A stretch of 64,000 nucleotides of DNA from Candidatus Harrisonbacteria bacterium (GCA_016214655.1 JACROC010000002.1:3801-67800); one strand, 5' to 3'; shown: positions 27,949 to 43,821, counted from the stretch's first letter. The notes: generated by a model not told the origin, from the sequence alone. Translations and numbers: made by a program.

Positions 27949-28272
27949 TTAATCGGACATGGATGGCAATACTTTCACGCCATTGACTCTTACTCCTTGA
28001 GTCGTGGAAAGCACCAGATCATCGTTATTCACTGAAAGAACCGAAGAATAGCCAATCCTGATTCCACCCCGCAGCGGTGTCCCGTCTTCAGCGATAATAC
28101 CAACCACTGAGGCGAAAGTTTCACGGGTAATATGTCTGCCATTGCTATTCACGCGAACCTTATTCCATTTGGGAGAAATAACCTTCATCGTATAAAGCGT
28201 ATTGCGAGTCTGCACTTCAACAACATCGCCGATCTTGAGATCACTTATAAGAATCCAGTCTGGCTTTTTCAT
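27949..28272 (-). CDS. Hypothetical small protein (107 aa), first unit of the cassette island
   Basis: Driven by a T1 cassette promoter. Confidence 0.45.
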   Translation of the reverse strand: MKKPDWILISDLKIGDVVEVQTRNTLYTMKVISPKWNKVRVNSNGRHITRETFASVVGIIAEDGTPLRGGIRIGYSSVLSVNNDDLVLSTTQGVRVNGVKVLPSMSD

Positions 28273-28314
28273 CTTTTATGTCTCCACTGTTTTAATTTTC
28301 AACGAACTAGAAAG

Positions 28315-28360
28315 TGACTCTATATTATTTCAAAATCTGTGTTTTGTCAAAAGAAAAAAC
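28315..28360 (-). promoter_or_regulatory. T1 cassette: TTGACA-17-TAATAT + conserved 5' UTR (AGTTCGTTGAAAAT) + GGAG
   Basis: tgtcaa 28345-28350, atatta 28322-28327 on plus strand; near-identical to five other copies. Confidence 0.6.
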
Positions 28361-28385
28361 AAGCAATGAATGCCTGTTTAATGTA

Positions 28386-28688
28386 TTATCGTAATTTTTT
28401 TCTTTCTGACTCTTCCAATTGTTTTATAATCTCTTTCGTATCTTTTGTGTACTGATTAGATTTAACTTTCTTGCCATATATTACTTCATAAACAAACCTT
28501 ATGGTTCTTTTGAAGAGTTTAGCGGATACAGCATTGGCGGAAAGCAAAGATACTGCATATTTAACTTCTTGCCTTCCTTCCCTATTTACCCCCTTTAACA
28601 CTTTCATTACGGGCAACATTTCCGGATAAACTTTTATAGTTAATCCCTTTCTTACTGAGAAAACTACTTTATTCATATTCCCCTTCAT
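28386..28688 (-). CDS. Hypothetical protein (100 aa)
   Basis: Intact ORF, basic. Confidence 0.4.
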   Translation of the reverse strand: MKGNMNKVVFSVRKGLTIKVYPEMLPVMKVLKGVNREGRQEVKYAVSLLSANAVSAKLFKRTIRFVYEVIYGKKVKSNQYTKDTKEIIKQLEESERKKLR

Positions 28689-28760
28689 CCCTTATCTGAT
28701 TATTTAAAAGCTAATATAGATATTAATTAAGATAAATTGATTAGTCAAATAAAAAACCGC

Positions 28761-29234
28761 TCAATGTAGAGCGGTGGATACAGTAATTTTTCCATATATC
28801 GGTATTCCCATATACGTTCTGAGTAAGGGTAAATCAATCCCGCGTCCTTGTACGTCTACCTCATTTCCTAACCAATTACGAATAAAATTATATTTTAATG
28901 CTATAGACTCGCCAATATGAAGTTCTGGAGATTCAGGAAGCGATACATACCATCCCCATACTAACTCTTCACCTCTATCGTATTTCGATACTTCAATATA
29001 ATAGACCTCCTTGTTCTTTGGAAACATGTCCAAATCAAAACCATATAAATCTCTATCAAGTTTCCGCGCTTTTTTTAATACACCATTCATTGTGTAGGTC
29101 TTTTTTTCGTTATACGATCCAAGAGTGTGAAAAAAGTATGATAAATCGTCAAATACGGGAGTAAAAACAGAACCCCAAAAGATGGCAAATACTAGGAGAA
29201 AAATCATCGGTGGTTCATTAACCGTTTTTTTCAT
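28761..29234 (-). CDS. Hypothetical N-terminally anchored membrane protein (157 aa)
   Basis: N-terminal TM helix; overlaps upstream gene by 17 nt. Confidence 0.4.
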   Translation of the reverse strand: MKKTVNEPPMIFLLVFAIFWGSVFTPVFDDLSYFFHTLGSYNEKKTYTMNGVLKKARKLDRDLYGFDLDMFPKNKEVYYIEVSKYDRGEELVWGWYVSLPESPELHIGESIALKYNFIRNWLGNEVDVQGRGIDLPLLRTYMGIPIYGKITVSTALH

Positions 29235-29592
29235 TGTTGGCTCCTACGACTTCAAGCATTGCCCTACACGTCTTACACTGCTCCACATGGAGCATTCGGA
29301 TATCGGAAAGATTCGGCCACTGCTTGAGTTCTTTAAGAGTAAGGCAATCTTTGATAAAAGCCAGCTCCAATGCCTTGTCTTCTAATTTCCCCTTAAATTC
29401 TTCGGTCGTCATTCCGATTCCCATAGCGACTCTTTTCAAGGCAGCCTCGAACTCATCTTCTTGATTACCGGTCTTTTTTGAACCAAGATCAAAATAGTTG
29501 ATGATGTCTCTCCTTATGGTTGGCGAAGCTAACATCAAAAATAACACAATGCCTACGAGTGTCAGACTAACGATAATCAGATAATTTTCCAT
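29218..29592 (-). CDS. Hypothetical membrane protein (124 aa)
   Basis: N-terminal TM; T1 cassette promoter. Confidence 0.4.
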   Translation of the reverse strand: MENYLIIVSLTLVGIVLFLMLASPTIRRDIINYFDLGSKKTGNQEDEFEAALKRVAMGIGMTTEEFKGKLEDKALELAFIKDCLTLKELKQWPNLSDIRMLHVEQCKTCRAMLEVVGANNEKNG

Positions 29593-29635
29593 CTTTCCTC
29601 CTATCTTCAGTTTTAAACGAACTGGGTATTGATGA

Positions 29636-29670
29636 ATATATTACTTCAAAATCTATGTTTTGTCAACAAC
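29636..29670 (-). promoter_or_regulatory. T1 cassette promoter + UTR CAGTTCGTTTAAAACTGAAG + GGAGG
   Basis: tgtcaa 29661-29666, atatta 29638-29643, exact 17-bp spacer. Confidence 0.6.
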
Positions 29671-29705
29671 CCGTAATGGTTCAATAGCTTGGAATACCCC
29701 AAACT

Positions 29706-30593
29706 ATGTATATGACATATTCAAATGACCCCCACTTGCCTCGGGTTAGAATGGAGGCAGTTCGTTTAGTTCGCTCCGGTTTGAGCACGGTAAAGGTCGC
29801 AAGGCATATGGGATATTCTCAAAGCGCTATTGTGAAATGGGTAGCCAAAGCTCCTACTGATGGTCGAATGATCATTCCTACTCAGTCATCTCGTTTCTGG
29901 ACACATCCGCATTCTTTGTCTGCTGAATTAGTGGAAACTATTTTGTCTTATCGACGAGAAAGAAATCAATGCGCGGAGATTCTGCATTATCGTTTGGCTA
30001 CAGATGGTTACCGAGTCAGCCTCTCCTCAGTAAAAAGAACTTTGCAAAGAAATCAGATGACTCGTTTCTCTAAATGAAAAAAGTGGCATCAATATCCGCC
30101 TCGTCCTCTGGCAGAAAAACCAGGGATTCTGGTTCAAATTGACACGATTCACGACGGCCAGGTTGGGGAGCAGCTATACATCTATACTCTGCTGGATGTC
30201 TGCTCCCGTTGGGCCTATGCCCTGCCTTCTTTGTGGATCAATACTCATCGCAGTTTGCAATTTGTGGAAAGGGCGAAGGAATTAGCTCCTTTTCCTTTCC
30301 AAACTTTCCAATCAGATCATGGCAGTGAATTTTCCAAATGGTTTACCAAAAGAATCGGGGAACGAAACATGGCCCATCGCCATTCCCGAGTCCGGCAGCC
30401 GAATGACAATGCTCACTTGGAAAGATTCAATCGGATCATTCAGGAGGAATGCATTTCCCGGATTCCCGGGTCATTATCTGTCTGGAAAAAAGAAATACTG
30501 GAATATCTCCGGTATTACAATGAGGAAAGGCCGCATATGGGGTTGGCTATGAAAACCCCGATCGATATTATTAAAACTATTCCAAGCTATTGA
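29706..30593 (+). mobile_element. IS481-family (rve/DDE) transposase interrupted by a single in-frame TGA at 30075-30077, likely a pseudogene
   Basis: N-terminal HTH; the same frame continues after TGA through ILVQIDTIHDG...SDHGSEF...NAHLERFN (DDE) to ...ERPHMGLAMKTP. No other frame change. Confidence 0.6.
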
Positions 30594-30737
30594 TTAGAAA
30601 ACGCAACCCCGGACTAAAGCCCGGGGCTTGTGGCTACGAGATGTCAAAATAAAAACCGCAAAGATTATCTACGACCCCACCGAACATTGTTAAAAGTAAA
30701 GTTATAAAAATATAAACGTCAAATTTGGTTCAAAAAA

Positions 30738-30765
30738 AGACGGCGGTGAAGCCGTCGAAATTGTG
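30738..30765 (-). terminator. gacggcttcaccgccgtc + T7 (minus strand)
   Basis: Ends a GC-rich roughly 125-nt minus-strand segment that has no ORF. Confidence 0.45.
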
Positions 30766-30858
30766 CCAATGGGTACTTTGCGATCCGCTGCGTTGAGGAT
30801 TTAGCTTCCACGCTAGGTTTGGCATCCCCCGAGCCAACTACCCTACGCCGTAATCCCC

Positions 30859-30893
30859 ACTGGTATAATGTAATATAACATACTGGTATAATT
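30859..30893 (+). promoter_or_regulatory. Two tandem extended -10 boxes TGGTATAAT
   Basis: Extended -10 boxes at 30862-30870 and 30884-30892, upstream of a 19-codon micro-ORF and the T2/T3-like sequence. Confidence 0.4.
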
Positions 30894-30907
30894 TATCAAG
30901 TAAATCT

Positions 30908-30947
30908 GTGTGCCATCGTGTGGGATGTTAGAACTTTGTTTGAGAGG
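30908..30947. repeat. T2-family element (degenerate copy)
   Basis: GTGCCATCGTGTGGGATG-TTAGAAC-TTTGTTTGAG. Confidence 0.4.
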
Positions 30948-31018
30948 AAGAATGATGCGGGTATCTATGTTCTCGTTTTCTGCCACACCCGTGATTCGCC
31001 ATATTTTATAAAAGAAAA

Positions 31019-31046
31019 AACCACCTAATGACGGTGGTTTGCAAAT
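31019..31046. terminator. aaaaaaccacc-taatgac-ggtggttt (bidirectional)
   Basis: 3' of lipoprotein gene 31075-31833. Confidence 0.5.
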
Positions 31047-31074
31047 TATATTTTATCTTTAAAGAACTTTTCCA

Positions 31075-31833
31075 CTACTTGCGAACAACGGCGAAACGAG
31101 TGCCTTTGGGCAAACCCCTAAAGAAATAACCAAAACCCACAAATCGCTTCTCGCCGCCAATACTGCCAAGATATAAATTTTCCCACTTTCTGGCATCAAT
31201 GTTATACCGGCCGCCATCTAAAGTAACAATCTCGCTCTTTTGCTGCTCATCAGGATACGCGACCCCAAACGCAAGAAGTTCTGCGGCGTTAGCAAAGCCA
31301 AAACCCAACTTTCCCAGCTCATCCTTAATTTCATCATCTTTCACATAATCTCTTACTGGGAAATTGTCCTTCGGCTGAGAACCCCAAAATTTCCTTGTCA
31401 CCCATTCATTGGGTTCTAATTCCCTAAAAATTTCTTCTTTTGAGTATCTCTTAAAAAAATCTCCGATTGTGGCAATATGAACTTCAATTCTTTTTTTACC
31501 CTTATTTCCAGCTTGTGCGCAGGCAGACTTAAAATTATTCCCTAAAGCATTATAACCACCCAAAAGATCCTCATCATCCGGAGGCAACTGCATATATTTT
31601 CCAACAACAGCAATTACTCTCCTGAAAGACTGGCTACAGTTGACTTCAATCGGAAAACCCTCGCTGATATCAACTCTTACAAATTCTTTCTTTTCTTGAA
31701 TCTCGGTTGAAGTTTTCAGCCCACATCCCGCTTGCGATATGGAAAAAGATAAACTGACAATGATCAGGGTTGGTAATCCCAAAAACCATTTGTTTCGATT
31801 AGTCGCCATCTGTTTCCTCCTTTCAAGGAACAT
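31075..31833 (-). CDS. Secreted lipoprotein-like protein, paralog of 36562-37515
   Basis: Signal peptide + SQAGC lipobox-like; shared C-terminal block AELLxFGxxYxD...RFxxVR with the 317-aa protein. Confidence 0.5.
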   Translation of the reverse strand: MFLERRKQMATNRNKWFLGLPTLIIVSLSFSISQAGCGLKTSTEIQEKKEFVRVDISEGFPIEVNCSQSFRRVIAVVGKYMQLPPDDEDLLGGYNALGNNFKSACAQAGNKGKKRIEVHIATIGDFFKRYSKEEIFRELEPNEWVTRKFWGSQPKDNFPVRDYVKDDEIKDELGKLGFGFANAAELLAFGVAYPDEQQKSEIVTLDGGRYNIDARKWENLYLGSIGGEKRFVGFGYFFRGLPKGTRFAVVRK

Positions 31834-31882
31834 TAACTACTGATAAATATATTAGCAGAAAATAAAAGTAAAGTCAAATAAA

Positions 31883-31924
31883 GTTGGGTCGGCAACTGAA
31901 TCAGATTAGAACTTGTTTAGTGGG
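31883..31924. repeat. T2 element directly upstream of TTGACT -35
   Basis: GGGTCGGCAACTGAATCAGA-TTAGAAC-TTGTTTAGTGGG. Confidence 0.55.
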
Positions 31925-31958: not shown

Positions 31959-32264
31959 TTATTTATGAAATAAGAAGTAAACAACCCACATCGGTGTAAA
32001 AAATAATACTAACCAAAGTAAAAATGGTGCTATCTCTCTGTTTTTGTGTTTCATCATCTCATAAATATTAAGGCCAATATAGATCATGGTGGGAATGCAT
32101 ATAAGCCACAAAGGGGCAAAGTATCCTATCACGGGGCCAACTAATAAAGCCGAAAGAAGGAGTGCTATTAAAGGCCGATCTTGCTTTGAAGTCATTATTC
32201 CTCTCAAGGCTAGTAAGTTTTTGAAGGTGCCTAATAATATTAGTAGATTTCGCCGGAAGTTCAA
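31959..32264 (-). CDS. Small membrane protein (101 aa, 2-3 TM)
   Basis: Hydrophobic helices; T2 element upstream. Confidence 0.4.
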   Translation of the reverse strand: MNFRRNLLILLGTFKNLLALRGIMTSKQDRPLIALLLSALLVGPVIGYFAPLWLICIPTMIYIGLNIYEMMKHKNREIAPFLLWLVLFFTPMWVVYFLFHK

Positions 32265-32368
32265 GCGGTGATATATAGCAAACTCTTTGAAAAAGATTTG
32301 GAATTAAAAAAGTTAATGCGGAGAAAGCCGATAGAGAATGTGGCTCCAATTACAATAAAGAGTAGGCT

Positions 32369-32402
32369 GGGTCGGCAACTGGATCAAGTTAGAACCTGAT
32401 GG
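32369..32402. repeat. T2 element
   Basis: GGGTCGGCAACTGGATCAAG-TTAGAAC-CTGATGG. Confidence 0.55.
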
Positions 32403-32449
32403 ACAAAAATTATTGGGTAGGCTATATTATGAACTAGCAACTTTACCAA

Positions 32450-32842
32450 TTGAAATGGGTAATGATAGATAAAGTAGCGTTATGCGGAACGGGCGGCTTT
32501 TGTACCTCTATTCTACTAGGAGTTCTGTGGGGCATAGCAATATGGCCCATTAACATTTTTTGGCTGATTATGACTATGCTTGTTTTCGCTATCGGATTGG
32601 CTTTATTGATAGCAGCAACTAATCTGGCTTATCACAATGGATTTAAGCACAATCAACCCTATGCAACGATTGTTGCAATGATTCTCAAGGAATATATCAA
32701 TTTACTCAATATACACGGCGAATATTCAAAAGAAGAGAAAGAATTCCGAGATAGATTCCAAAAGAATCCGGAACTACTGAACCTATTAGACACTGCTAAA
32801 ATGACAAAAACTGTTTACTCAACAGCCCTACAAGACCCTTAA
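32450..32842 (+). CDS. Membrane protein (130 aa); only plus-strand gene of the island
   Basis: 3 TM helices. Confidence 0.4.
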   Translation: MKWVMIDKVALCGTGGFCTSILLGVLWGIAIWPINIFWLIMTMLVFAIGLALLIAATNLAYHNGFKHNQPYATIVAMILKEYINLLNIHGEYSKEEKEFRDRFQKNPELLNLLDTAKMTKTVYSTALQDP

Positions 32843-32870
32843 TAACGGGGTCTCTTTTTATTAAAACTAG

Positions 32871-32906
32871 GTGCCGTCGTGTAGGATATTAGAACCAGGA
32901 TAAACA
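32871..32906. repeat. T2-family element (degenerate)
   Basis: GTGCCGTCGTGTAGGATA-TTAGAAC-CAGGATAAACAC. Confidence 0.4.
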
Positions 32907-32963
32907 CAAATTGAGTTACCCCACCCCCAAATACACTATTTTGAAAAGAAAAACCGTTCAAGA

Positions 32964-33512
32964 TTAACGGTCATTCTCCTTAGAACGTATTTCGCTTGCG
33001 AATTTTTGTATAAATGCCTCATCGGCTTCCCTATATTCGTTGCTATCCTTTCCATAAAGTTTCTCGGCCTGCCTCCTGGCTTCGATATATATATTAAGCT
33101 TCTTTTTAAGAGATTCTGCACGTTCTTTGTCTCGTTGAATCCATAGTTGCATTGCCTCTTTATATTCTTTACTGTCTTCTCCTAATGCCTGAGCGGCTAT
33201 CATCGCCGCATCAGGATAATTGCGAGCTTCCATTGCCTGTTTATACATTTCTTTACCAAATTGCTTGCCTTGCTCTTCCGAAACCAATTCAACGTTTTCT
33301 AGTTCATATTTAAGTTCGACTGCTAAATAGTAATTACCGTGATTAGCAAGGTCTGTAATAACCTCCTCAGCCCATCTTTGAATCTCTGTAGCGGATATTC
33401 CTAACTCCACACCTTTGCGAATCGTAAAAGAGGGGCGGCCCATTTTTTTAATTTGTTCCCAAGATTGTTCCTTTGGCTTATCTTCTTTGTTAAACCTCTT
33501 ATCGGGATTCAT
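32964..33512 (-). CDS. Hypothetical cytoplasmic protein (182 aa), Lys/Glu-rich helical
   Basis: Intact ORF. Confidence 0.4.
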   Translation of the reverse strand: MNPDKRFNKEDKPKEQSWEQIKKMGRPSFTIRKGVELGISATEIQRWAEEVITDLANHGNYYLAVELKYELENVELVSEEQGKQFGKEMYKQAMEARNYPDAAMIAAQALGEDSKEYKEAMQLWIQRDKERAESLKKKLNIYIEARRQAEKLYGKDSNEYREADEAFIQKFASEIRSKENDR

Positions 33513-33583
33513 AAATACACATTATCATAAATAAACTTGTTATACACGTTCTTTTATTTGCTCCTTTCTAGTAGGGAAAATTA

Positions 33584-33612
33584 GAACCTATTTTGTGAGT
33601 GTTGGGGCGTTA
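33584..33612. repeat. T2-family element (short copy)
   Basis: GGGAAAA-TTAGAAC-CTATTTTGTGAGTG. Confidence 0.4.
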
Positions 33613-33616
33613 CCCC

Positions 33617-33696
33617 ACCCCGTGATTCACTATATTTCTTAAAAAGAAAAAGCCCCGAATGGGATTAAACCATTTTGAGGCTTCGGGGAAAATCAA
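33617..33696. repeat. T3 element: CACCCCGTGATTCACTATATTTCTTAAAAAGAAAAAG + hairpin with conserved loop
   Basis: Stem ccccgaa/ttcgggg enclosing loop TGGGATTAAACCATTTTGAGGC (inner AATGG/CCATT stem). Confidence 0.5.
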
Positions 33697-33922: not shown

Positions 33923-34177
33923 TTATTTACACCAATACAAGGAGGTGTCTCTTCCCCCTAAAATATCCAATTCTAAATACCAAGTACTAGGCAATCTATC
34001 ATATCTACTATATCGCATATCTGCATATCGTAATACCCTTGCCGACTGAACCACGAATTTCGTTTTCTTCTCAACCCCATAAGAATCACAGTTAATGAGC
34101 CCGCCGCACAAGACAAAACCGAAACATAGCATCAGGGATTTCATCTTCTTCACCCTTTCTCCTTCAATTTTCAACAA
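33923..34177 (-). CDS. Hypothetical signal-peptide protein (84 aa); may continue by frameshift into a 52-codon frame down to about 33715
   Basis: Lipoprotein-like N-terminus; downstream frame encodes LVYVEVNSKYRLKEGSGNFYRKATVIVPDEASAEKWNKALRKDLPKEVVIPK directly after the stop. Confidence 0.35.
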   Translation of the reverse strand: MLKIEGERVKKMKSLMLCFGFVLCGGLINCDSYGVEKKTKFVVQSARVLRYADMRYSRYDRLPSTWYLELDILGGRDTSLYWCK

Positions 34178-34199
34178 ACTAAATTCTAGTGTATATATT

Positions 34200-34245
34200 A
34201 CTTCAAAATTTATGTTTTGTCAAAAGAAAAAACCGCCTCAGCTTA
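34200..34245 (-). promoter_or_regulatory. T1 cassette promoter + UTR
   Basis: tgtcaa 34234-34239, atatta 34211-34216; preceded by terminator ccgcctcagcttacgctttggcgg (34249-34272). Confidence 0.6.
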
Positions 34246-34274: not shown

Positions 34275-35789
34275 TTAATCAGTAAATTTAATCTGTTTAT
34301 GCTGGGAGAGACAAAGGTAAAGCGCAACTGCAACGCAATCGGCTAGAAAACCCCTGCCGACTTTTTCATCATGCAGACAACAAGCGCGCTGATATGCCTC
34401 CGCAACTTTATTGCCCAAGCCACTCAAATGAGAGTCGATGATGGCTTTGTAAATACATTTAACAGTGGGAAAGCCCTGCACGAACTCGCTATTGTGAGCA
34501 ATACTCGTAGGCTTTCCGGCTGAAACAGCTAAATCTTCCTCGTAATACCGGAGAACATTCGTGGCTTTAGGATGTTTTGCAATTTTGCGATCGGTATAAT
34601 TAGAAAGGACATGAACCAACTGTTTCATTTCCACTAGTCTATCAACATCCTCACGCGTGGTTGCTCTAAGGACAGCAACCGCTTTCTGAAGGATGTCTTC
34701 CGTTTTCATTGTGCTTGATAAATCAAAAAGGTGTTGGCTTGCCACGACAGGAATCAGAAGTTCAATAATACCGTGATTGATTCTGCCCCCTCCCCGGTTG
34801 CGCAGACTTTCCTTCTGGGCCCGGAGAGCAAAATGGTATATCGGCGGCTGCCCATCTACACTATGCTGACGCACACTTCGTGCCAAATCTTCAAATGCCT
34901 CGCCGATGTTGATACCCCCTATTACAAAATACTCAAGTTTCAAATGCCGACTCACATTTCGATGTCTGGTAGTGCAACCGGTTTTATCCGATAGCGGCTC
35001 AAGTGCGCAAGCAAGCATTACTTGCCGGCCAGTTTCGCGAGGAGTTCTTACATCTTTCTGATTCTCCCATGCAATTTTGTAAAGAACATCCAGGTGACGC
35101 TCATCTTGTTGCTCATCCTCCTCCATAAAAATATCTGCATCGTATAAATCCTCAATCAGACGCCGCAGATCCGGGTTCAGCACAAGCATTTTTTCTTTTA
35201 TCTGAGCCGCGCTAAGCTTTGCTCCGCCAAACTTATCATTCGCCCGATGCAAAGCATCGTAACAATCAGCAAGCGCCAACATCCGACCATAAAAAGTAAT
35301 TAAAGCCTCCGTGGCTCGGGAAAAAGAATGAGACTTCTTCGGAAGTTTACTCGGATAACCATTAACTTGAAATCGGTGATGCCACAATATAACTTCTGCG
35401 GTAAAATCGAAAGTTCCCCTAAGGAGTCGATAACTGTCCATAACATGGGCTTTCATAACCCTAGTATCCTTAGCTGTCCATCCGCTCGTTTTTTCCAAAG
35501 TTGAAATGGGAGCCTGAGTTTTACCAATATCATGGAATACGCCAGCATACACAAGCGCTTTAACATCAAGATTCATAAACTTAGCTATTAACTCAAGCAG
35601 TAATGCAACACGAAGGCTGTGCTGGTAATGAAGGTGGGTTACAGAATTCTTGTTTCGAAGTGGAGCGAGCAACGATCTTACCTTTCTACGCTCATCACTA
35701 CTCACCTTCAAATCGCTTAAAATCTCGTCAAATCTTTTCTCGAGCCAGGTAGTATAAGCCGCATCGTTCTCTACGTGTATTTTGTCCAT
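34275..35789 (-). CDS. HD-GYP-type phosphohydrolase domain protein with uncharacterised 250-aa C-terminal extension
   Basis: GVFHDIGK (HD motif) and ILWHHRFQVNGYPS (HHExxDGxGYP-like). Confidence 0.55.
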   Translation of the reverse strand: MDKIHVENDAAYTTWLEKRFDEILSDLKVSSDERRKVRSLLAPLRNKNSVTHLHYQHSLRVALLLELIAKFMNLDVKALVYAGVFHDIGKTQAPISTLEKTSGWTAKDTRVMKAHVMDSYRLLRGTFDFTAEVILWHHRFQVNGYPSKLPKKSHSFSRATEALITFYGRMLALADCYDALHRANDKFGGAKLSAAQIKEKMLVLNPDLRRLIEDLYDADIFMEEDEQQDERHLDVLYKIAWENQKDVRTPRETGRQVMLACALEPLSDKTGCTTRHRNVSRHLKLEYFVIGGINIGEAFEDLARSVRQHSVDGQPPIYHFALRAQKESLRNRGGGRINHGIIELLIPVVASQHLFDLSSTMKTEDILQKAVAVLRATTREDVDRLVEMKQLVHVLSNYTDRKIAKHPKATNVLRYYEEDLAVSAGKPTSIAHNSEFVQGFPTVKCIYKAIIDSHLSGLGNKVAEAYQRACCLHDEKVGRGFLADCVAVALYLCLSQHKQIKFTD

Positions 35790-35815: not shown

Positions 35816-35850
35816 TGTTATATTAACACTAAATTTGAAGGGTGTCAAAA
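35816..35850 (-). promoter_or_regulatory. T1-variant cassette promoter TTGACA-17-TAATAT
   Basis: tgtcaa 35843-35848, atatta 35820-35825; terminator ccgccaaataagcgg upstream. Confidence 0.55.
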
Positions 35851-35872
35851 GAAAAAACCGCTTATTTGGCGG

Positions 35873-36433: not shown

Positions 36434-36561
36434 CTATTTAAACCTTCTTATCCTAAATTACTAAACATATATTATTAAAAAGATATCTTTTTGTCAAAAA
36501 ACTGCTGACAAATAGAAATGCCCACACAGTAAACCGTGTGGGCATTTTTCCAGATGTCCCG

Positions 36562-37515: not shown

Positions 37516-37557
37516 TGTTCCTCCTCTCTTCTTCAGTTTTAAACGAACTGTAAAGTG

Positions 37558-37592
37558 CTTATATATTACTTTAAAATTTATGTTTTGTCAAA
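37558..37592 (-). promoter_or_regulatory. T1 cassette promoter + UTR ACAGTTCGTTTAAAACTGAAG + GGAGG
   Basis: tgtcaa 37585-37590, atatta 37562-37567. Confidence 0.6.
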
Positions 37593-37676
37593 AAAATAAT
37601 CCAAATCGACGACCGGATCAAATTAAAATATATTTAGTGAGTAATAAAAAAGCCCAAAAATAATTTAGGGCGTATA

Positions 37677-38336: not shown

Positions 38337-38813
38337 TTATTTATCATTGTCCTTTTTCTTTCTGACTTTTTCTAGAATATCCGAACGAACATAAACATAT
38401 TTATCCCGTGGCAGGAACCAAGGTATTAAGGCACGGAGTAATTTATTTCTAGGAGCAGAAGCCGCTAAAACGCCATTTTTTTGAAAACTGACTACAACGC
38501 TTTCATTATTTACTTCAATTGAACCGATGAGATTATCCCCTAATACTGCTAAGAAAAAAGGGTTGTCCACGATGCTTACATAATTTTCACCTGCTACCCT
38601 AACCTTCATAGTCATACTACTGGTATATACATTTAAAACCGTTCCTTGTAGTAAAGCACCGCCATTACCAATGGCACTAACCCAGACAGTAACGGTAGAC
38701 TTATGGACCAACTTATTTAAATTGTTTAAATCGTCCAATTCTTTTGCAAAAATATTGGAAGAACAAAATAAAAATAGTCCGATGACCATAACCATCTTTT
38801 TCTTCATTTCCAA
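38337..38813 (-). CDS. Secreted hypothetical protein (158 aa)
   Basis: Signal peptide MVMVIGLFLFCSSNIFA. Confidence 0.4.
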   Translation of the reverse strand: MEMKKKMVMVIGLFLFCSSNIFAKELDDLNNLNKLVHKSTVTVWVSAIGNGGALLQGTVLNVYTSSMTMKVRVAGENYVSIVDNPFFLAVLGDNLIGSIEVNNESVVVSFQKNGVLAASAPRNKLLRALIPWFLPRDKYVYVRSDILEKVRKKKDNDK

Positions 38814-38887
38814 CCTCCTTTTTCAATGAGCATTCTCTGCTTTTCAGCAGTGTTGATATATTAACATAAAATTTTTATAAATCAAAT

Positions 38888-38927
38888 CTGGATCGGCAAC
38901 TGGAGCGGGTTAGAACCTGTTTGGTGA
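38888..38927. repeat. T2 element
   Basis: TGGATCGGCAACTGGAGCGGG-TTAGAAC-CTGTTTGGTG. Confidence 0.55.
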
Positions 38928-38970: not shown

Positions 38971-39153
38971 TCAAACAAGTGCAACTTGAAATTGATTTTT
39001 ATCGTCTGTATAACCTCGAATTTCAGCAACTTGCTTCGCACTACCATCTCTAGATGTTGAACAAAGATTGCAAGTTCCCATACGAATTTTATTGGGAGGC
39101 ACTTCTATACCCACTTTCTTTAAGCATCCAACACAATAAGTATGTATACTCAT
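38971..39153 (-). CDS. Small zinc-ribbon protein (60 aa)
   Basis: CVGC...CNLC four-Cys arrangement. Confidence 0.4.
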   Translation of the reverse strand: MSIHTYCVGCLKKVGIEVPPNKIRMGTCNLCSTSRDGSAKQVAEIRGYTDDKNQFQVALV

Positions 39154-39220
39154 TCCTTTTCTCGCTAATAATGTTCTGTAACTATATTATTCTCTAATCA
39201 AAAATAAATCAAATAAATTT

Positions 39221-39258
39221 AGGTCAGCAACTGGATCGAGTCGGAACCTGTTTAGTTG
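39221..39258. repeat. T2 element
   Basis: AGGTCAGCAACTGGATCGAG-TCGGAAC-CTGTTTAGTTG. Confidence 0.5.
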
Positions 39259-39288
39259 AGTCATAAAAGAAAAAAGTCATTCGCGCGA

Positions 39289-39780
39289 CTATTGATTCTC
39301 TCTGACTTGATTATTATCTTTGAAGTCTTGATACAAACCCGAAGATTTATCCTCATTAAACCAATAATTTTTTTCATTAGGATTGATTGAAATAAGGCTA
39401 CGAACTAATTGGTCTTTGGTGCAACAGAGTGAGGTTCGTTTGCCGTATCGAAATCTGTACGTTTTCTGCCAAAGTTTTGCCGTCTCTGTCACGGGCTCTT
39501 CAACTATGACTGGTCCCCAAAAATGGAGTCCTAATCTGCAAAGAAATTTTATTTCCTTATCGTCTGTATTTAAACCACCAGATTCTAGCAAATGGCTTCG
39601 TGCCTCATCCATGAAAACAATAGTGAAAATGGTGAGCAAATACATCAAAAGCCAAAAAATTAAGATTCCCTTCAATCCCCAGACTAAAACGATAAACGCC
39701 ACCAGAAGCCAGTCTTGTAAACCAGCTGGTCTCGTGGAAAGTATTAATTTAACTAACTTCATTTCCCATCTCCTTTTCAA
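39289..39780 (-). CDS. Membrane protein (163 aa)
   Basis: 2 TM helices near N-terminus. Confidence 0.4.
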   Translation of the reverse strand: MKRRWEMKLVKLILSTRPAGLQDWLLVAFIVLVWGLKGILIFWLLMYLLTIFTIVFMDEARSHLLESGGLNTDDKEIKFLCRLGLHFWGPVIVEEPVTETAKLWQKTYRFRYGKRTSLCCTKDQLVRSLISINPNEKNYWFNEDKSSGLYQDFKDNNQVRENQ

Positions 39781-39834
39781 CGAGCGTTAGGTGCTGATAA
39801 ATATATTACTAAGAAATAAGAATAAAATCAAACC

Positions 39835-39873
39835 TGGGTCGTCTAGTGAACAATGTTAGAACTTGTTTGATGA
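39835..39873. repeat. T2 element (variant)
   Basis: TGGGTCGTCTAGTGAACAATG-TTAGAAC-TTGTTTGATG. Confidence 0.5.
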
Positions 39874-39920
39874 TTTGAAAAATAAAAACCGTTGAGCAAA
39901 TCAACGGTTCCTGAATTCTA

Positions 39921-40343
39921 TTATTCAATTACCTGCGTCATTCCCTTTCCCGTCTTTCCGTGATCCCAACCGGCGCCTTCAACATTCTTTTCCGAATGGA
40001 GGTGAATTTCTAGGGAAATCACCCGCCAACGCGCATTAATGCCATTGTCCCGCATCACAACATGCGACCACATCTTCTCCTCCCCTGAAACATCTTTGAA
40101 AAGATGTACACAATCGGAATAATCATTACATCGATATGCTTCCATTTTTAGTTCTTTAGAGTCATTTTTCTCAGTAATCAAAGTCCAATTATACCGGTCA
40201 TGCATCAATACGCGAACGATATTCTCAACTTTCTCCTCCGAAATTCTCGAGATCCTTTTCATTTCTTGCCGCGTCACTGTATAAATAGTAGATAAACACA
40301 AGGCAATACACATCAAAACTAAAACCCTATAAAGATTTTTCAT
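39921..40343 (-). CDS. Secreted hypothetical protein (140 aa)
   Basis: Signal peptide. Confidence 0.4.
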   Translation of the reverse strand: MKNLYRVLVLMCIALCLSTIYTVTRQEMKRISRISEEKVENIVRVLMHDRYNWTLITEKNDSKELKMEAYRCNDYSDCVHLFKDVSGEEKMWSHVVMRDNGINARWRVISLEIHLHSEKNVEGAGWDHGKTGKGMTQVIE

Positions 40344-40460
40344 CGCCCCTCCTTTGCTTCCCCTTATTTAGTACTATTTAAAAATTACCACAATATATTT
40401 ATTCTGTCAATTAAACGTACCGGCGAGTTCAATAAGTAAGTGCACCATTTGGTAAAAAAG

Positions 40461-40754
40461 TTATTTCTTACTGACATCGATTATCTCCTCCCAAAACATG
40501 GTGGCGCTATTCGTAGGATCACCTTCACCATTAATACCGCAAAGTTCCACACCCCCTTCGCTGATGCCGCGCACTACCAATTGCTGAATTACTTCAATGC
40601 TTCCATTTCCCTTTCGCCTGGTAACTTCTACCATACCTTTTTCAAGAGATTCTTCCGACAAGAAAATCTCCAAGGATGCTTGAAAAATTAGGCGAAGGCG
40701 CTCACGTTTTTCTTGATCAGATTCTTTTTGGGGACCGCGTTCAAATTGACTCAT
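40461..40754 (-). CDS. Hypothetical protein (97 aa)
   Basis: Intact ORF. Confidence 0.35.
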   Translation of the reverse strand: MSQFERGPQKESDQEKRERLRLIFQASLEIFLSEESLEKGMVEVTRRKGNGSIEVIQQLVVRGISEGGVELCGINGEGDPTNSATMFWEEIIDVSKK

Positions 40755-40801
40755 TTATAAAATAGGGATCATTATGATGAATAATATTAAAACTTCTTTA
40801 A

Positions 40802-41695
40802 TCAATCTCGAATTAACATCACCCCAACAATCATAATAGCAAAAAGCAGTGCTTTTTTGGCAATTGCCCAACCATCAATTTCCTCTCTAAATACACCCGG
40901 CAGATTTTTTGATAAAAACCTGGCATAAAATACCAGAAAAAATGGCGTGAGCATCGAAATGCTCTTCGCCATACTTACTGAAGCAAGCGCAATCGCGTAA
41001 CTTTCGGAAACAAAGGCAATAAAGGTGAATGTTTCCTCAGCCGCAAAAACCGGAAACATTTGCCTGAAAATGTTGACGTTAGCTATAATGTCACTTCTTG
41101 TGCGTTGTGGAATTAAGAAAAGCAAAGCCAGCAAAAGCGCCGTTCCCCCTTCCCCAACAAGCACAGTACCCAAATTCACTCCTTGTCCAAAAAGATATTT
41201 GATCAACACCCCCTCAAATGAAAGAATAAAAGCCGCCAATCCAATATACCAGAAAGCCTTGCTGAATCGAAAATCTTCTTTCCAACCTCTTAAACTCAAA
41301 AGCGTGCTGCTCAATATAAGCAATCCGATACCAACATATTGAAACAAAGTCAGAACTTCACCGACAATAAAAAAGGCCAAGATGGGAATGAAAATTCTCC
41401 CCAACGAGAAAAAGGAAATGGCAATAGAAGTGTCATCGCTTTGCAGTCCTTTATAGTAAGGATAAAGATATATAATATTAATGAAGCCCAAAAGAAATAA
41501 AATCGGGAAAACAGCCGCCGACGGCATGACTGGCTTAAAAAAAATAAAAACTAATGGGAGAAACAAAAGATTAAATAAAGAAGTGTAAAATGCGAGAGTG
41601 GTTGGATTTTTAAATTTTTGATTAACTAAAAAATTATCTAAAACGTTGGACAGGGCATAAAAAGCCGGCGCTAAAAATGCAATCAACAGCCACAT
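40802..41695 (-). CDS. EamA/DMT-superfamily transporter (10 TM)
   Basis: Two 5-TM repeats, 297 aa. Confidence 0.6.
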   Translation of the reverse strand: MWLLIAFLAPAFYALSNVLDNFLVNQKFKNPTTLAFYTSLFNLLFLPLVFIFFKPVMPSAAVFPILFLLGFINIIYLYPYYKGLQSDDTSIAISFFSLGRIFIPILAFFIVGEVLTLFQYVGIGLLILSSTLLSLRGWKEDFRFSKAFWYIGLAAFILSFEGVLIKYLFGQGVNLGTVLVGEGGTALLLALLFLIPQRTRSDIIANVNIFRQMFPVFAAEETFTFIAFVSESYAIALASVSMAKSISMLTPFFLVFYARFLSKNLPGVFREEIDGWAIAKKALLFAIMIVGVMLIRD

Positions 41696-41736
41696 AAGAA
41701 AATTATAACACGGTAAGAAGCAATTTTATTTACCCC

Positions 41737-41813
41737 GCCCCAAAACTCACCGTATTTTGAAAAAGAAAAAGCCCCAGATGGGATAAAACCATATAGGGCT
41801 TTTGAAGTTGCTT
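41737..41813. repeat. T3 element with conserved hairpin loop
   Basis: ...GAAAAAGAAAAAGCCCCAGATGGGATAAAACCATATAGGGCTTTTG. Confidence 0.5.
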
Positions 41814-42177
41814 CTTTCTCCATTGCTTCAAAAAAGTTGATTATGCTTCCCTAGCATAAAACCTGCGACATCTTTGTATTCATTCCATTGTTTTCTGACC
41901 TTACTCTTTAAAATAGCGGGTATGGTAATTGGCCAATAAACTACGAACATCACAGCTGTTAAAGCAGTTTCCATTCTCATACCCCCTCTTCCTTTTGAGT
42001 TTATACTTCAGAGTACTGCGTATATAATATATTAAAATAATCCTTTTGTTAAAAAAAGAGCCCCGGTACTATAAAAGCTACTGGGGGAGGTGCCTGCTAC
42101 CCCCGCTCTCGAACAGGAACCTCAATATATTAATATCATATCGTTGTTAATAAAGTCAATTAAAAAAACCGCCCTTA

Positions 42178-42456
42178 TTAAGTGATTTCACGCAACATAT
42201 CAACTAAAACAGGGTCTTCTATATATCTCCAAAATCTGGGCAAAGGAGCGTAATAGGTTCGATTCCATTCGTCTCCAGAACAGGAGCATGGCAAAAATGG
42301 ATAAACGGTAATCAGTTGTTTCGTTTGAAATCCTTTGAGTAAAGGAAGCAGCTCTTCCGGCTTTAATCGGGTGCGAGCTTCCAATTCGAGAGAACTCTGG
42401 ATCCCGCCTTCTTTTAAAGCGTGAATCAGCCTGTCCACGGCCATTTTCTTTTCCAT
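42178..42456 (-). CDS. Hypothetical protein (92 aa)
   Basis: T1 cassette promoter. Confidence 0.4.
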   Translation of the reverse strand: MEKKMAVDRLIHALKEGGIQSSLELEARTRLKPEELLPLLKGFQTKQLITVYPFLPCSCSGDEWNRTYYAPLPRFWRYIEDPVLVDMLREIT

Positions 42457-42496
42457 TCTCCTTCCTTTTTCAGTTTTAAACGAACTTAAAAGTGCT

Positions 42497-42530
42497 TCTA
42501 TCTTATTTCAAGATTTACTATCTGTCAAAA
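42497..42530 (-). promoter_or_regulatory. T1 cassette promoter TTGACA-17-TAAGAT + UTR AAGTTCGTTTAAAACTGAAA
   Basis: tgtcaa 42523-42528; terminator ccgctaaagcgtaagctgaagcgg upstream (42536-42560). Confidence 0.6.
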
Positions 42531-42571
42531 GAAAAACCGCTTCAGCTTACGCTTTAGCGGTTCTATTTAAT

Positions 42572-42916
42572 TCAAAACACTACGGTCCGCACCACTTCCG
42601 AATATCCGATCATTCCTTGATTTGAACCATGAGGATTCAATAAAACCCACTCGAGATATTTCTTATAAGCCTCCTCACGACTTATTTTTCCGAGAACAAC
42701 CACATTCATTTGCTTTGAACCGCTACAATTAAAAATGATGCGATAATCATCTACCTTTTCCCACTTGACGTCCCCGCGCGTTCCATGAACTTCAGATAAG
42801 TCAGTTGTACTAGAGCTGGGATAAAATTTACTCATAAACCGCCTCTTTAACTCTGGGTTCGCGTTTATTTCATCCAGGAATTTTTTAATTCTCTTATCAT
42901 AAAGTCTCACAATCAA
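42572..42916 (-). CDS. RelE/ParE-family toxin-like protein (114 aa), no adjacent antitoxin
   Basis: N-terminal KKFLDEINANPELKRRFMSKF and C-terminal GDVKWEKVDDYRIIFNCSGSKQMNVVVLGKISREEAY fit the RelE/ParE pattern. Confidence 0.4.
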   Translation of the reverse strand: MIVRLYDKRIKKFLDEINANPELKRRFMSKFYPSSSTTDLSEVHGTRGDVKWEKVDDYRIIFNCSGSKQMNVVVLGKISREEAYKKYLEWVLLNPHGSNQGMIGYSEVVRTVVF

Positions 42917-43008
42917 CTCCTATTTATTTGTAAACTGTCTTGATAAAGTGTATTTCAAAAGCGCTCTATAGTCAACTTTCATATTCTAGAGGATACTAAA
43001 GTCAAATT

Positions 43009-43047
43009 TGGGTCACCTAGTGAATAATACAAGAACCTATTTAATCG
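43009..43047. repeat. T2 element (variant)
   Basis: TGGGTCACCTAGTGAATAATAC-AAGAAC-CTATTTAATCG. Confidence 0.45.
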
Positions 43048-43086
43048 AATTGTAAAAGAAAAAAGCGCGATTCATCGCACTTTTAG

Positions 43087-43353
43087 TTACCTCACCACAT
43101 CCCGAACTGCGGCAACAGACTCAAGTTCATTCTCGAAGAAACACCCCCCTTTCAATCCTTGCTCGTCTTGAAAAGCCACTGCATAAATAAATTCGCCGCT
43201 ATGGTCACCTCGCGCTACATTCATAACATAACCAACTCTGCCGAATAATTGCCGGCGCTCCCTGCTGAAGAAAAACTTATAAAGAAAACTGACATTGCGA
43301 ACTCGAACTTCATCAAGTACCTCAAAACGCGCTGTTTTCTGCTGTCCCATCAC
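43087..43353 (-). CDS. Hypothetical protein (88 aa)
   Basis: Intact ORF. Confidence 0.35.
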   Translation of the reverse strand: MMGQQKTARFEVLDEVRVRNVSFLYKFFFSRERRQLFGRVGYVMNVARGDHSGEFIYAVAFQDEQGLKGGCFFENELESVAAVRDVVR

Positions 43354-43416
43354 TACTCCTTATAGAAATATGCTATTCACTATATTACTAAGAATAAAAA
43401 ATAAGTCAATTGTTTT

Positions 43417-43450
43417 TCGAGTGAATAAATAGGTCTAGAACCCGCTTCAT
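43417..43450. repeat. T2 element (degenerate)
   Basis: TCGAGTGAATAAATAGGTC-TAGAAC-CCGCTTCAT. Confidence 0.4.
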
Positions 43451-43485
43451 AAATACATAAAAAAGCGATATTAAATATAGCCCTA

Positions 43486-43821
43486 TCAATCTCCAAATTT
43501 TACCAACTTGTCACCCCCTGAAAGAACATAGTCGGTTGTCACTACAAGAATCTCTCCTATAAAAATCTGAGACTTGCCATCTTCTGCACTTAACACAGAC
43601 ATTCCCGCCTTTCTTTTCAAGATATTCACCGGATTGCTTTCGTTTGGACCTATCGAAAATACGGTAATCGTATCATGTTTAGAAATACGGAGCCCCTTTG
43701 AATTCATAAAATTCCTGAGGCAGGTTATATTATCCCCGTCTATATATGTAACCGTAAAACACTTTCTTTTGTGCTCTAAAGTAATAACATTTGTCTTATG
43801 AGAATTCTTTTTAATACTCAA
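43486..43821 (-). CDS. Hypothetical protein (111 aa)
   Basis: Intact ORF. Confidence 0.35.
   Translation of the reverse strand: MSIKKNSHKTNVITLEHKRKCFTVTYIDGDNITCLRNFMNSKGLRISKHDTITVFSIGPNESNPVNILKRKAGMSVLSAEDGKSQIFIGEILVVTTDYVLSGGDKLVKFGD

Follow-up and report, generated by a model that had tools for sequence, protein, structure and literature searches.

An array of small genes with three intergenic repeat families in Candidatus Harrisonbacteria, and a candidate module-boundary motif recurring in other Parcubacteria

In Neisseria minimal mobile elements, Correia repeats and Mycoplasma variable-lipoprotein loci, accessory or surface genes are swapped or switched between conserved sequences; the repeats of these systems carry promoters or terminators, and their hosts are small bacteria, either naturally competent or associated with a host. 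On Acinetobacter plasmids, the gene modules known as pdif modules are bounded by palindromic XerC/XerD sites of 28 bp whose orientation alternates; in each site, a 6-bp spacer separates two 11-bp arms that are partly palindromic. REP/BIME repeats are short palindromic hairpin units, found genome-wide and accompanied by a RAYT transposase. The attC sites of integrons, composed of R''/R' and L''/L' boxes, fold with extrahelical bases. In sedentary chromosomal integrons and CALINs (attC clusters without an integrase), these sites are folded imperfect palindromes of 57-141 nt (Cury et al. 2016, PMC4889954), and integron cassettes rarely contain promoters, expression being driven from a common Pc beside attI (PMC4889954). 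In addition, more than 4000 families of putative mobile promoters, 50-100-nt upstream regions with at least 80% identity, have been described (Matus-Garcia, Nijveen and van Passel 2012, PMC3488235).

The locus described here lies in a MAG of Candidatus Harrisonbacteria (Parcubacteria, CPR), an uncultured, ultra-small bacterium, within an analysed stretch of 64 kb, hereafter the window (Table 1). The interval 27949-43821 encodes 25 ORFs of 50-504 aa on the minus strand and a single one (32450-32842) on the plus strand, in addition to two pieces of one IS; with its repeats, the array spans 27.9-44.2 kb. Most units are predicted to be monocistronic, in the order terminator, T-run, TTGACA-17-TAATAT, leader and SD, and most spacers contain a terminator hairpin with a T-run, TTGACA/TTGACT-N16-18-TAATAT and GGAGG. 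The array has 29 terminator-like sites (shuffles: 13.5 +/- 3.9), and its minus strand bears six promoters that match TTGACA-17-TAATAT perfectly. This layout agrees with an earlier note on this DNA, in which about 25 short, separately transcribed minus-strand genes were proposed, save that two pairs, and only two, are predicted to be co-transcribed (29218-29592 with 28761-29234, and 40802-41695 with 40461-40754). In relatives, the ABC-F and GreA genes are either adjacent (L001, L019) or a few kb apart (15 loci); in the window they are 22 kb apart, split by the array region. The array proteins that were looked up form singleton clusters, and the closest homologue of the HD protein is 55% identical. 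The array is best explained as a lineage-specific variable region of the Ca. Harrisonbacteria chromosome.

Table 1. Features of the array and its surroundings (positions in the window).
Feature	Position	Strand	Remarks
Small-ORF array	27949..43821	-	~26 small ORFs, ~22 predicted transcription units; variable chromosome region
ABC-F gene	21300..22817	-	greA neighbour in relatives; left side of lineage-specific 22-kb stretch
greA	45044..45553	+	right anchor of lineage-specific stretch
HD-domain protein	34275..35789	-	kept across Parcubacteria (homologues ~50% identical); embedded in array
IS481-family element, internally deleted	29681..30593	+	HTH and rve_3 domains; perfect 16-bp inverted repeats
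T1 copy	28280..28364	-	TTGACA-17-TAATAT, leader AGTTCGTT.AAAA.T.AA and SD; drives 27949-28272; E 1.3e-20
T1 copy	29595..29679	-	drives 29218-29592 and 28761-29234; IS adjoins its -35 side
T1 copy	34152..34239	-	drives 33923-34177; upstream terminator stem in common with 42458 copy
T1 copy	37520..37606	-	drives 36562-37515
T1 copy, divergent spacer	42458..42540	-	drives 42178-42456
Weak T1-like promoter	35818..35862	-	TTGACA-17-TAATAT; precedes HD gene
Second weak T1-like copy	36468-36504	-	perfect palindrome AAAAAGATATCTTTTT within spacer
T2 copy	31876..31923	-	between 31959-32264 terminator and 31075-31833 promoter
T2 copy	32359..32406	-	upstream of 31959-32264
T2 copy	38879..38927	-	between 38971-39153 and 38337-38813
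T2 copy	39211..39259	-	between 39289-39780 and 38971-39153
T2 copy, box-2 variant CACTAGACGACCC	39825..39873	-	between 39921-40343 and 39289-39780
T2 copy, variant	43000..43048	-	between 43087-43353 and 42572-42916
Partial T2, box 1 only	33570..33598	-	24 nt downstream of T3 box; E 0.25
Similar partial T2 copies	~32866-32900, ~30896-30935, ~43415-43460	-	partial, as at 33570
T3 copy	27897..27943	-	overlaps SGNH hydrolase gene start
T3 copy	30973..31037	-	after 31075-31833
T3 copy	32910..32974	-	after 32964-33512
T3 copy	33605..33670	-	long hairpin, T-run, AAATATAGTGAATCACGGGGTGGGGTAA
T3 copy	41724..41787	-	upstream of EamA gene
T3 copy	44160..44220	-	right edge of array

The proteins of the array have little in common. 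In an all-against-all comparison, a single similar pair was found (31075-31833 and 36562-37515; 31% over 97 aa, E 5e-4), as the earlier note had claimed, and all-against-all BLASTP gave no similarity among the T1-driven proteins. The same note regarded the cargo as mostly secreted, lipoprotein, membrane or unknown proteins; this holds in so far as 12 of 23 unannotated proteins begin with a hydrophobic or TM segment at the N-terminus, but the HD protein, an EamA transporter (40802-41695) and the secreted two-domain protein 36562-37515, which has 4349 homologues and is a member of two large domain families that already existed, are not orphans. Likewise, a disrupted IS481 transposase is indeed present inside the array, recognizable by its HTH and rve_3 domains and by inverted repeats that are perfect over 16 bp (29681-29696 and 30578-30593).

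Copies of three intergenic repeat families, T1, T2 and T3, were called by nhmmer profiles over the window: five of T1 (E 1e-19 to 1e-21), six of T2 (E 1e-10 to 1e-13), plus four partial ones, and six of T3 (terminators; E 4e-9 to 2e-18). Every copy is on the minus strand, and none of the families has a significant nhmmer match in the 48 kb that the window contains outside the array, so the three families reported before are real and, within the 64 kb, restricted to the array. In exact-pattern repeat searches, 0 matches are expected in shuffles. Even with a cutoff as loose as E<=10, no Rfam covariance model matched any of the three families, and neither T1 nor T3 was found in the other sequences searched outside this genome. 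The description of the cassettes as near-identical applies to a 30-nt T1 core only, with pairwise identity over whole cassettes of 56-71% for T1, 53-75% for T2 and 32-65% for T3. Nor are all units wired to them: T1, T2 or T3 is present in about 17 of about 27 spacers, the rest being generic terminator-promoter junctions.

T1 comprises a promoter and its leader. The 30-nt core has 0-3 mismatches in four copies (90-100% identity), while the best pair reaches 80% over 79 nt and the mean pairwise identity is 64% over ~95 nt. Homology runs from the T-run as far as the start codon and stops there sharply. The 17-nt spacer is conserved and includes the dyad CAAAA-N6-TTTTG; the leader motif is conserved too, and the leaders fold no better than shuffles. 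Moreover, two copies (34152 and 42458) have an upstream terminator stem in common, which points to copying rather than convergence because there is no functional reason for its conservation. Such features, together with the unrelated genes downstream and the lack of matches in the other 48 kb, show that the cassettes are more than a common promoter consensus, as had been suspected, and shared descent of the intergenic cassettes is supported by these comparisons. T1 is best explained as a duplicated promoter plus leader copied before unrelated genes ("promoter propagation"), by which a strong sigma-70-type promoter and leader would have been propagated to the upstream regions of five genes. As the spacer dyad and the leader motif are both conserved, these five genes probably constitute a small co-regulated set. 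Alternatively, one gene with its promoter may have been repeatedly duplicated in tandem, its coding part diverging beyond recognition and its regulatory DNA being kept. One weak paralogue pair and the N-terminal hydrophobic segment in about half of the products would fit, but this history is quite unlikely: the products, 50-504 aa long, include unrelated known folds (HD, EamA), the paralogues stand under different cassettes (T2 and T1), 36562-37515 belongs to domain families that already existed, and homology ends abruptly at the start codon.

T2 is a linear, bipartite 35-nt motif, AAACAGGTTCTAAY-N4-TYCAGTTGCCGACCCA, and its 3' end lies 3-10 nt upstream of a -35 box in most copies of the window. 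The promoter and leader after the 39825 copy are homologous to those at 31834-31875, and T2 is probably part of a longer unit, T3 box plus T2. RNAalifold on 15 T2 copies returned 0 pairs on either strand; T2 thus behaves as a sequence-specific duplex motif. This bears directly on the integron-like architecture suggested in the earlier note. Same-orientation single-gene units with no known function would suit a classical chromosomal integron or CALIN, and on visual inspection T2 looks like the left half of some attC sites (aadA1 has GTCTAAC-AATTC-GTTCAAGCCGAC, and cmlA1 contains ...GCAGCCGACCCAAAA). However, an attC covariance model, small in that it was built from 6 sites, class-1 only, recovered its controls, including an untrained site (E 3e-13), and found nothing in the window or the T2 loci, where E 1.5 was the best value once filters were turned off. 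T2 lacks an inverted partner, a T2 HMM misses real attCs, and no IntI-like recombinase matched at E<0.1 (phmmer --max, IntI1 against ORFs of at least 80 aa, 64-kb window and all loci). Because T2 forms no hairpin, the attC model finds nothing, no IntI-like protein was found there and each unit has its own promoter, identity as an integron is highly improbable and effectively refuted; the analogy fails in every structural test (fold, attC model and IntI).

Other known repeat types were also rejected. For a Xer/dif-type site, the T2 halves GGTTCTAAC and GTCGGCAAC (the reverse complement of box 2) share the inner AAC only, and the spacer is 8 nt, its last four bases being conserved. A REP/BIME-type repeat does not agree with a motif that lacks a hairpin and is absent from 48 kb of flanks and ~450 kb of relatives. 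As for a MITE or IS-derived repeat, which would have terminal inverted repeats, a target-site duplication and copies in either orientation, all copies are co-oriented, and the sole inverted repeats found are those of the IS remnant, unrelated to T1-T3.

Beyond this genome, an exact-pattern scan located intergenic T2 in four further metagenome contigs. In a Nealsonbacteria-like lineage (L038/L041-43), six same-strand T2 copies occur within 4.5 kb among single small genes, flanked by housekeeping genes. The 31-nt T2 core is 84-94% conserved across genomes of 34% and 41% GC. T2 is conserved across Parcubacteria lineages while the cargo differs, with no cargo common to the T2 arrays; T2 is absent from ~450 kb of other Parcubacteria DNA, orthologous regions included. 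In L038, two T2 copies are extended by 75 nt of shared sequence, at the end of which box 1 recurs in inverse form; one of them folds as a hairpin (z = -4.1), and five of the six copies are followed by a terminator or other sequence and no promoter. Two independent comparisons between strains show a change of gene content at the 3' end of T2, which is the variation at module boundaries that the earlier note had proposed to look for; these two junctions are the only ones found, both in the Nealsonbacteria-like lineage. L036 and L038 are 92-94% identical over 1.3 kb, and homology stops 0 nt past the T2 3' end (...GCCGACCCA). Compared with L036, three genes (2.24 kb) are inserted in L047; on the right, this insertion ends 5 nt past a T2 copy that begins where its last gene has the stop codon. 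The insert-free strains L036 and L041 have no T2 at this site, so a simple T2 x T2 exchange does not account for the insertion, and the right boundary in common may merely reflect where a conserved gene ends.

Such junctions would be mere edges of conserved blocks if T1, T2 and T3 were promoter, operator or activator sites under selection for co-regulation, with no role in gene movement. In all six window copies, and also in L036, L038_7915 and L039, a TTGAC -35 box adjoins T2, a position that fits a transcription-factor site equally well; the dyad in the T1 spacer is typical of repressor operators, the unstructured T2 is as expected of a duplex protein-binding site, and the empty L047 sites without T2 agree as well. 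Nevertheless, a pure regulon is rather unlikely, since the distance from T2 to the -35 box varies (3-10 nt), five of six L038 copies precede no promoter, T2 is missing from orthologous regions in those ~450 kb, and the cargo is wholly different between arrays, although a conserved regulator normally keeps conserved targets. The terminator stem of the two T1 copies, copied rather than converged upon, is not expected under it either.

The repeats could instead be selfish or neutral (REP-/MITE-like or remnants of small mobile elements), accumulating without host function in a poorly constrained region. Their clustering, the partly degenerate copies (T2b, weak T1), the inverted box 1 and hairpin of the L038 extensions and the IS remnant within the array are in line with this. 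We consider it improbable, given that all copies lie on the coding strand at the same place relative to genes, that those in the window have neither terminal inverted repeats nor target duplications, that T2 has no fold and its core is well conserved between genomes of different GC, and that T1 is a complete, predicted functional promoter and leader reaching the start codon.

The reading we tentatively prefer, from sequence comparison, is that of an array of accessory genes in which T2, a candidate protein-recognised boundary site, closes the modules, although support for it is still thin. Each of about 22 self-contained modules would comprise a promoter and leader of its own, a small gene (two in rare cases) and a terminator, with T2 at the downstream end. 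T2 may be bound by a protein, and modules may be gained, lost or replaced by recombination there. Neither the 64-kb window nor the 20 kb surrounding the second array was found to encode a recombinase; one from another part of the genome might act on T2 in trans, or T2 might serve as a short homology anchor in transformation, with an attC/pdif-like function. Of the modular recombination envisaged by the earlier note, cassettes of shared descent and boundary variation at T2 in a second lineage are retained, but the integron analogy is not. Nor does gene capture behind a shared expression cassette describe the make-up of the array, because every unit comes with a promoter and a terminator of its own and T2 is placed at the 3' end of modules. 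That T2 also marks the ends of gene modules in other CPR lineages hints at an undescribed form of accessory-gene swapping or control.

Compared with known systems, the array shows none of the long flanking homology, TIR-bearing repeats, invertase sites or genes in both directions of the Neisseria and Mycoplasma systems. With pdif modules it shares discrete gene modules, short conserved boundary sites with predicted binding and, as proposed, a recombinase elsewhere, but T2 lacks symmetry and keeps a single orientation throughout. Like mobile promoters, T1 is a 50-100-nt upstream region placed before non-homologous genes of one genome; unlike them, its copies are clustered in one 16-kb array, include a leader and sometimes the preceding terminator, and at full length mostly fall below 80% identity, the threshold of PMC3488235. 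CALINs differ in that attC is a folded 57-141-nt palindrome whereas T2 is a 35-nt unstructured motif, and in that the modules here have their own promoters and terminators. Nevertheless, the array resembles CALINs in its same-orientation single-gene units, mostly without known function, with a conserved repeat after each and no integrase near; the strain-to-strain change of gene content at the repeat that marks CALINs would have its counterpart in the two junctions of the Nealsonbacteria-like lineage.

CPR bacteria are ultra-small and depend on hosts; half of the genes in their reduced genomes have no known function, and to our knowledge, the ways in which they acquire, exchange and control accessory genes are largely unknown. 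The window is chromosomal DNA of such a bacterium, with TypA, a DEAD-box helicase, ABC-F, LepA, MacB-type and membrane-fusion efflux components, RNase P RNA and five tRNAs in its flanks. In tRNA-Arg(ACG), the 71 positions of the Rfam tRNA model are spread over 95 nt, which implies that ~24 nt are inserted 3' of the anticodon arm. GreA is 70% identical to the protein of a Candidatus Buchananbacteria MAG, and all of its close matches belong to Parcubacteria/Paceibacteria. In two comparison loci from relatives (L001 and L019), ABC-F is encoded immediately upstream of greA, and within a few kb of it in 15 of 28 relatives, whereas in the window 22 kb separate the two genes, which are inverted with respect to one another. 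Except for an S8 peptidase in the left part (40% identity over 284 aa to locus L032), a second left-part ORF (32% to L001) and an HD protein, the ORFs of the 22.9-45.0 kb region have no counterpart in the fetched loci. This scarcity of counterparts and the changed setting of ABC-F and greA therefore point to a lineage-specific, rearranged stretch in which the conserved HD and S8 peptidase genes are interspersed, and the array of small genes is not one clean foreign insertion.

In the array, 25 ORFs of 50-504 aa are on the minus strand and one ORF is on the plus strand, and a single IS is present as two fragments. Nearly all minus-strand spacers follow one order, namely a G+C-rich hairpin, a T-run, TTGACA or TTGACT, 16-18 nt and TAATAT, downstream of which come a 25-45-nt leader, GGAGG and the start codon. 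Terminator-like sites number 29 in the island, twice the expectation (13.5 +/- 3.9 in shuffles), and six perfect TTGACA-17-TAATAT promoters lie on its minus strand, while the number of promoter-like sites in the flanks equals expectation. Co-transcription is predicted for just two gene pairs, and the GC content is ~0.36-0.45, against 0.42-0.50 across most of the flanks. The array is a real, statistically solid feature; the earlier note had described it essentially correctly, while overstating the sequence identity of its cassettes and the orphan status of its genes. A-tract/T-tract dyads are present in the -35/-10 spacers of several island promoters, one of which holds a perfect palindrome (see the table). 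In addition, an ORF-free unit beside the IS remnant folds at -47.1 kcal/mol (z = -2.4), has no Rfam match, and may be a small RNA or an orphaned leader.

Per-protein Pfam matches in the island are confined to the IS fragments (HTH, rve_3), an HD phosphohydrolase and an EamA transporter. Scans of the pooled proteins with PHROGs, PADLOC and Pfam, for which the tool names no member, gave a few single-member matches, the most plausible source of which, we infer, is the set of six annotated left-flank proteins. For eight island proteins, exact look-up led to deposited entries annotated as hypothetical (locus tags HZB99_00330 to HZB99_00430), whereas the deposited HD protein carries a name. An N-terminal hydrophobic or TM segment is found in 12 of the 23 unannotated products. 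As had been proposed, no relationship among the proteins is seen beyond one weak pair (31% over 97 aa). The reading of the array as decayed tandem paralogues is highly improbable. Not all of the cargo is orphan, for the HD protein and a 317-aa protein have wide homologues. Those of the former, ~50% identical, occur throughout Parcubacteria in housekeeping neighbourhoods. The latter, secreted and T1-driven, joins two domains that are widespread but uncharacterised (~residues 35-185 and 186-317, neither in Pfam) and has 4349 homologues; its 252-aa paralogue has only the first domain in common with it, and one of the two domains is present in a glycosylation cluster of another Harrisonbacteria genome.

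Three repeat families emerge consistently from repeat detection, searches with mismatches and nhmmer profiles, namely T1 (a promoter and leader cassette), T2 (a 35-nt linear bipartite motif made of box 1 and box 2) and T3 (a terminator-type repeat). The profiles have no significant match in the remaining 48 kb of the window, and ~10 array spacers carry none of the three. Whole-cassette pairwise identity is 56-71% for T1, 53-75% for T2 and 32-65% for T3, so that the term 'near-identical' used for the cassettes is apt for a 30-nt T1 core (0-3 mismatches in four copies) and inapt for whole cassettes (32-75%). The IS, a discrete element with an internal deletion, has perfect 16-bp inverted repeats, which are unrelated to T1-T3. 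The reading of T1-T3 as selfish repeats is considered improbable.

Repeat families and other features in the window and in comparison loci (L-numbers)
Feature	Position	Strand	Remarks
Array	27949-43821		
T1	27.9-44.2 kb	minus	5 copies, ~85 nt, E 1e-19 to 1e-21; 2 weak promoter-only relatives
T2	27.9-44.2 kb	minus	6 copies, ~48 nt, E 1e-10 to 1e-13; 4 partial, first box only
T3	27.9-44.2 kb	minus	6 copies, E 4e-9 to 2e-18; SGNH start codon within one copy (left array edge)
Palindrome at gene end, outside array	7600-7635		AGAACCTATTTT-TATA-AAATAGGTTCT, two inverted T2 box 1 copies
tRNA-Arg(ACG)	13687-13782	plus	96 nt
Left array flank	24277-27907		PaaX_M/Cas2-like, C39-peptidase-like, DUF5680, NUDIX and SGNH proteins
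tRNA-Gln	24927-24998	plus	3 kb left of array
ORF with L001 counterpart	25179-25733		
Candidate sRNA or orphaned leader	30732-30866	minus	Promoter TTGATA-16-TATATT, ~120 nt G+C-rich and ORF-free, terminator 30756-30739
252-aa paralogue	31075-31833	minus	
Promoter	36469-36497	minus	-35/-10 spacer filled by perfect 16-bp palindrome AAAAAGATATCTTTTT
317-aa protein	36562-37515	minus	
T2 variant	39830-39868	plus	Reverse complement has 10-mer GGGTCGTCTA in common with tRNA-Gln 5' end; marginal significance
92-aa protein	42178-42456		T1-driven, possible HTH
GreA	45044-45553		
L035	370-520		T2 ~40 nt from apparent tRNA 3' half on opposite strand, not called by ARAGORN
L038	7440-7520, 6020-6098	minus	T2 copies with common 75-nt extension ending in GTTAGAACTT and terminator
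L039	79-1031		tRNA-His, hicB/hicA-like toxin-antitoxin pair, T3-like box and T2
L045	6802-8208		DGR (RVT_1 + bAvd)

The T1 alignment starts at the terminator T-run and stops at the start codon, and the -35 and -10 boxes, the entire 17-nt spacer between them (dyad CAAAA-N6-TTTTG) and the leader motif AGTTCGTTTAAAACTGAAG are conserved. Because the copies at 34152 and 42458 also have the upstream terminator stem in common (88% identity), copying is indicated rather than convergence. A hairpin in the leader was rejected, as it folds no better than shuffles, and the T1 pattern had no match in the three public collections scanned (genome, metagenome and viral contigs). The most apt description of T1 is a promoter-leader cassette that has propagated locally, as in the promoter propagation of Matus-Garcia et al. 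2012 (PMC3488235). Through the spacer dyad, the T1 genes may be co-regulated. The AlphaFold model of the 92-aa T1-driven protein is unusable (pLDDT 49.6). We know of no genetic tools for the CPR group, in which T1 would provide a ready-made strong promoter and leader.

The T2 consensus, derived from a 15-copy alignment, is cYAAACAGGTTCTAAY-N4-TYCAGTTGCCGACCCa, with a fixed distance of 12 nt from RGTTCTAA to GNCGACCC. As RNAalifold predicts no pairs on either strand, T2 behaves like a duplex sequence motif. A scan with a degenerate exact pattern yielded six metagenome contigs, two of which probably match by chance, that in L040 lying inside a reading frame and that in L037 having no flanking T2 consensus (profile E 0.03). 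The other four matches are intergenic, with the consensus extending on both sides. One of these four, the Nealsonbacteria-like locus L038, carries six copies on one strand within 4.5 kb, separating single small genes and flanked on both sides by housekeeping genes; the SppA of this type of array is 69% identical to a Ca. Nealsonbacteria protein. The array recurs in three independent assemblies (L041-L043, one contig being 482 kb long), with no recombinase within 20 kb, and a further T2 copy is found in the related strain L047 (E 8e-9). Two L038 copies are extended by a sequence that ends in the inverse of box 1, and one of them folds as a closed hairpin (z = -4.1), whereas the other does not. 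In L039, in L036/L038 and at three window copies, a T3-like box (TATAGYG...GGTGRGGTAA) lies 12-50 nt ahead of T2, and box and motif may form one composite element. T2 was not found in ~450 kb of other Parcubacteria loci or in viral contigs, its consensus has no match in plasmids and phages, and the T3 pattern has none in viral contigs; no cargo is common to the window array and the other T2 arrays.

Other identities were considered for the motif. Sigma-28 promoters have the form TAAA-N15-GCCGATAA, ECF promoters AAC-N16-17-CGT and sigma-54 promoters GG-N10-GC, and by inspection the 12-nt box spacing of T2 fits none of them. For T2 and T3, identity as a tRNA-like element or an att remnant was likewise rejected, since ARAGORN and Rfam were negative and T-arm pairing fails.

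Comparison of strains places two breakpoints at T2. L036 and L038 are 92-94% identical across 1.3 kb, and the alignment stops exactly after ...GCCGACCCA, beyond which the genes differ. L047 and L036 are 91-98% identical on either side of a 2.24-kb insertion of three genes in L047, one encoding a HEPN_AbiU2 protein, and the insertion ends 5 nt past a T2 copy that starts at the stop codon of its last gene. Both breakpoints fall at the T2 3' end, the position predicted if mobile modules terminate in T2. However, the empty sites in L036 and L041 lack T2, and a third strain has its break at this right-hand position too, with no T2 there; the conserved flank, not T2, may therefore set that boundary. 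The locus downstream of SppA is hypervariable, holding a NYN protein, a DGR, defence-like genes or other content depending on the strain, and further variants (L044-L048, L055) provided just one additional T2 junction. In L045 and L046, a DGR lies directly 3' of SppA and a large serine recombinase 4-5 kb upstream of it; this DGR-bearing locus is from a relative 85% identical to the T2-array strain.

We lean, at somewhat less than even odds, towards a modular accessory-gene array, in which T1 has spread by local duplication and T2 marks where modules end and their content is exchanged. The main rival, by which T1-T3 would serve regulation and nothing else, is rather unlikely. At T2 itself, the data so far fit recombination and regulation alike. 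If T2 is a regulator site only, it is still a rare defined regulon signature in CPR. A short conserved motif marking the ends of accessory modules in several Parcubacteria lineages would offer a handle on the flexible gene pool in metagenomes. A still more tentative proposal sees in T2, possibly combined with the T3 box, the site at which an as yet undescribed gene-cassette system of CPR/Parcubacteria recombines. Such a system would consist of self-expressed modules of one to three genes, each ending in a 35-nt duplex site, which a trans-acting recombinase would insert, excise and exchange between lineages. If this is true, it would be an integron-like platform for accessory genes with neither attC hairpins nor IntI, and T2 as recombination site would point to a new gene-capture mechanism outside the integron paradigm.

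Toxin-antitoxin cassettes are common in chromosomal integrons, and the order in L039, where the T3-like box and T2 come directly after the hicA stop codon, resembles them. By eye, T2 resembles the left half of some attC sites. The aadA1 attC site was confirmed (100% identical in 1962 plasmids) and five other real sites were read; the T2 HMM matched none of these six. A covariance model built from six attC sites recovered all six and an untrained one (E 3e-13) and found nothing at E<=10 in the window or any T2 locus, its best island match with filters off having an E of 1.5. T2 as half of an attC site was rejected on these two tests, and an IntI1 query against every ORF of the window and the loci found no relative. 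A true integron is the least credible of the readings. The integron-like architecture put forward by the earlier note fails as a statement of membership; as a hypothesis about function it stands, backed to a limited degree by independent evidence from another lineage. Every array unit has its own promoter, whereas integron cassettes rarely carry one (PMC4889954); because the attC, IntI and promoter tests all fail, the array is neither an integron nor a CALIN, although it may work in a manner comparable to them.
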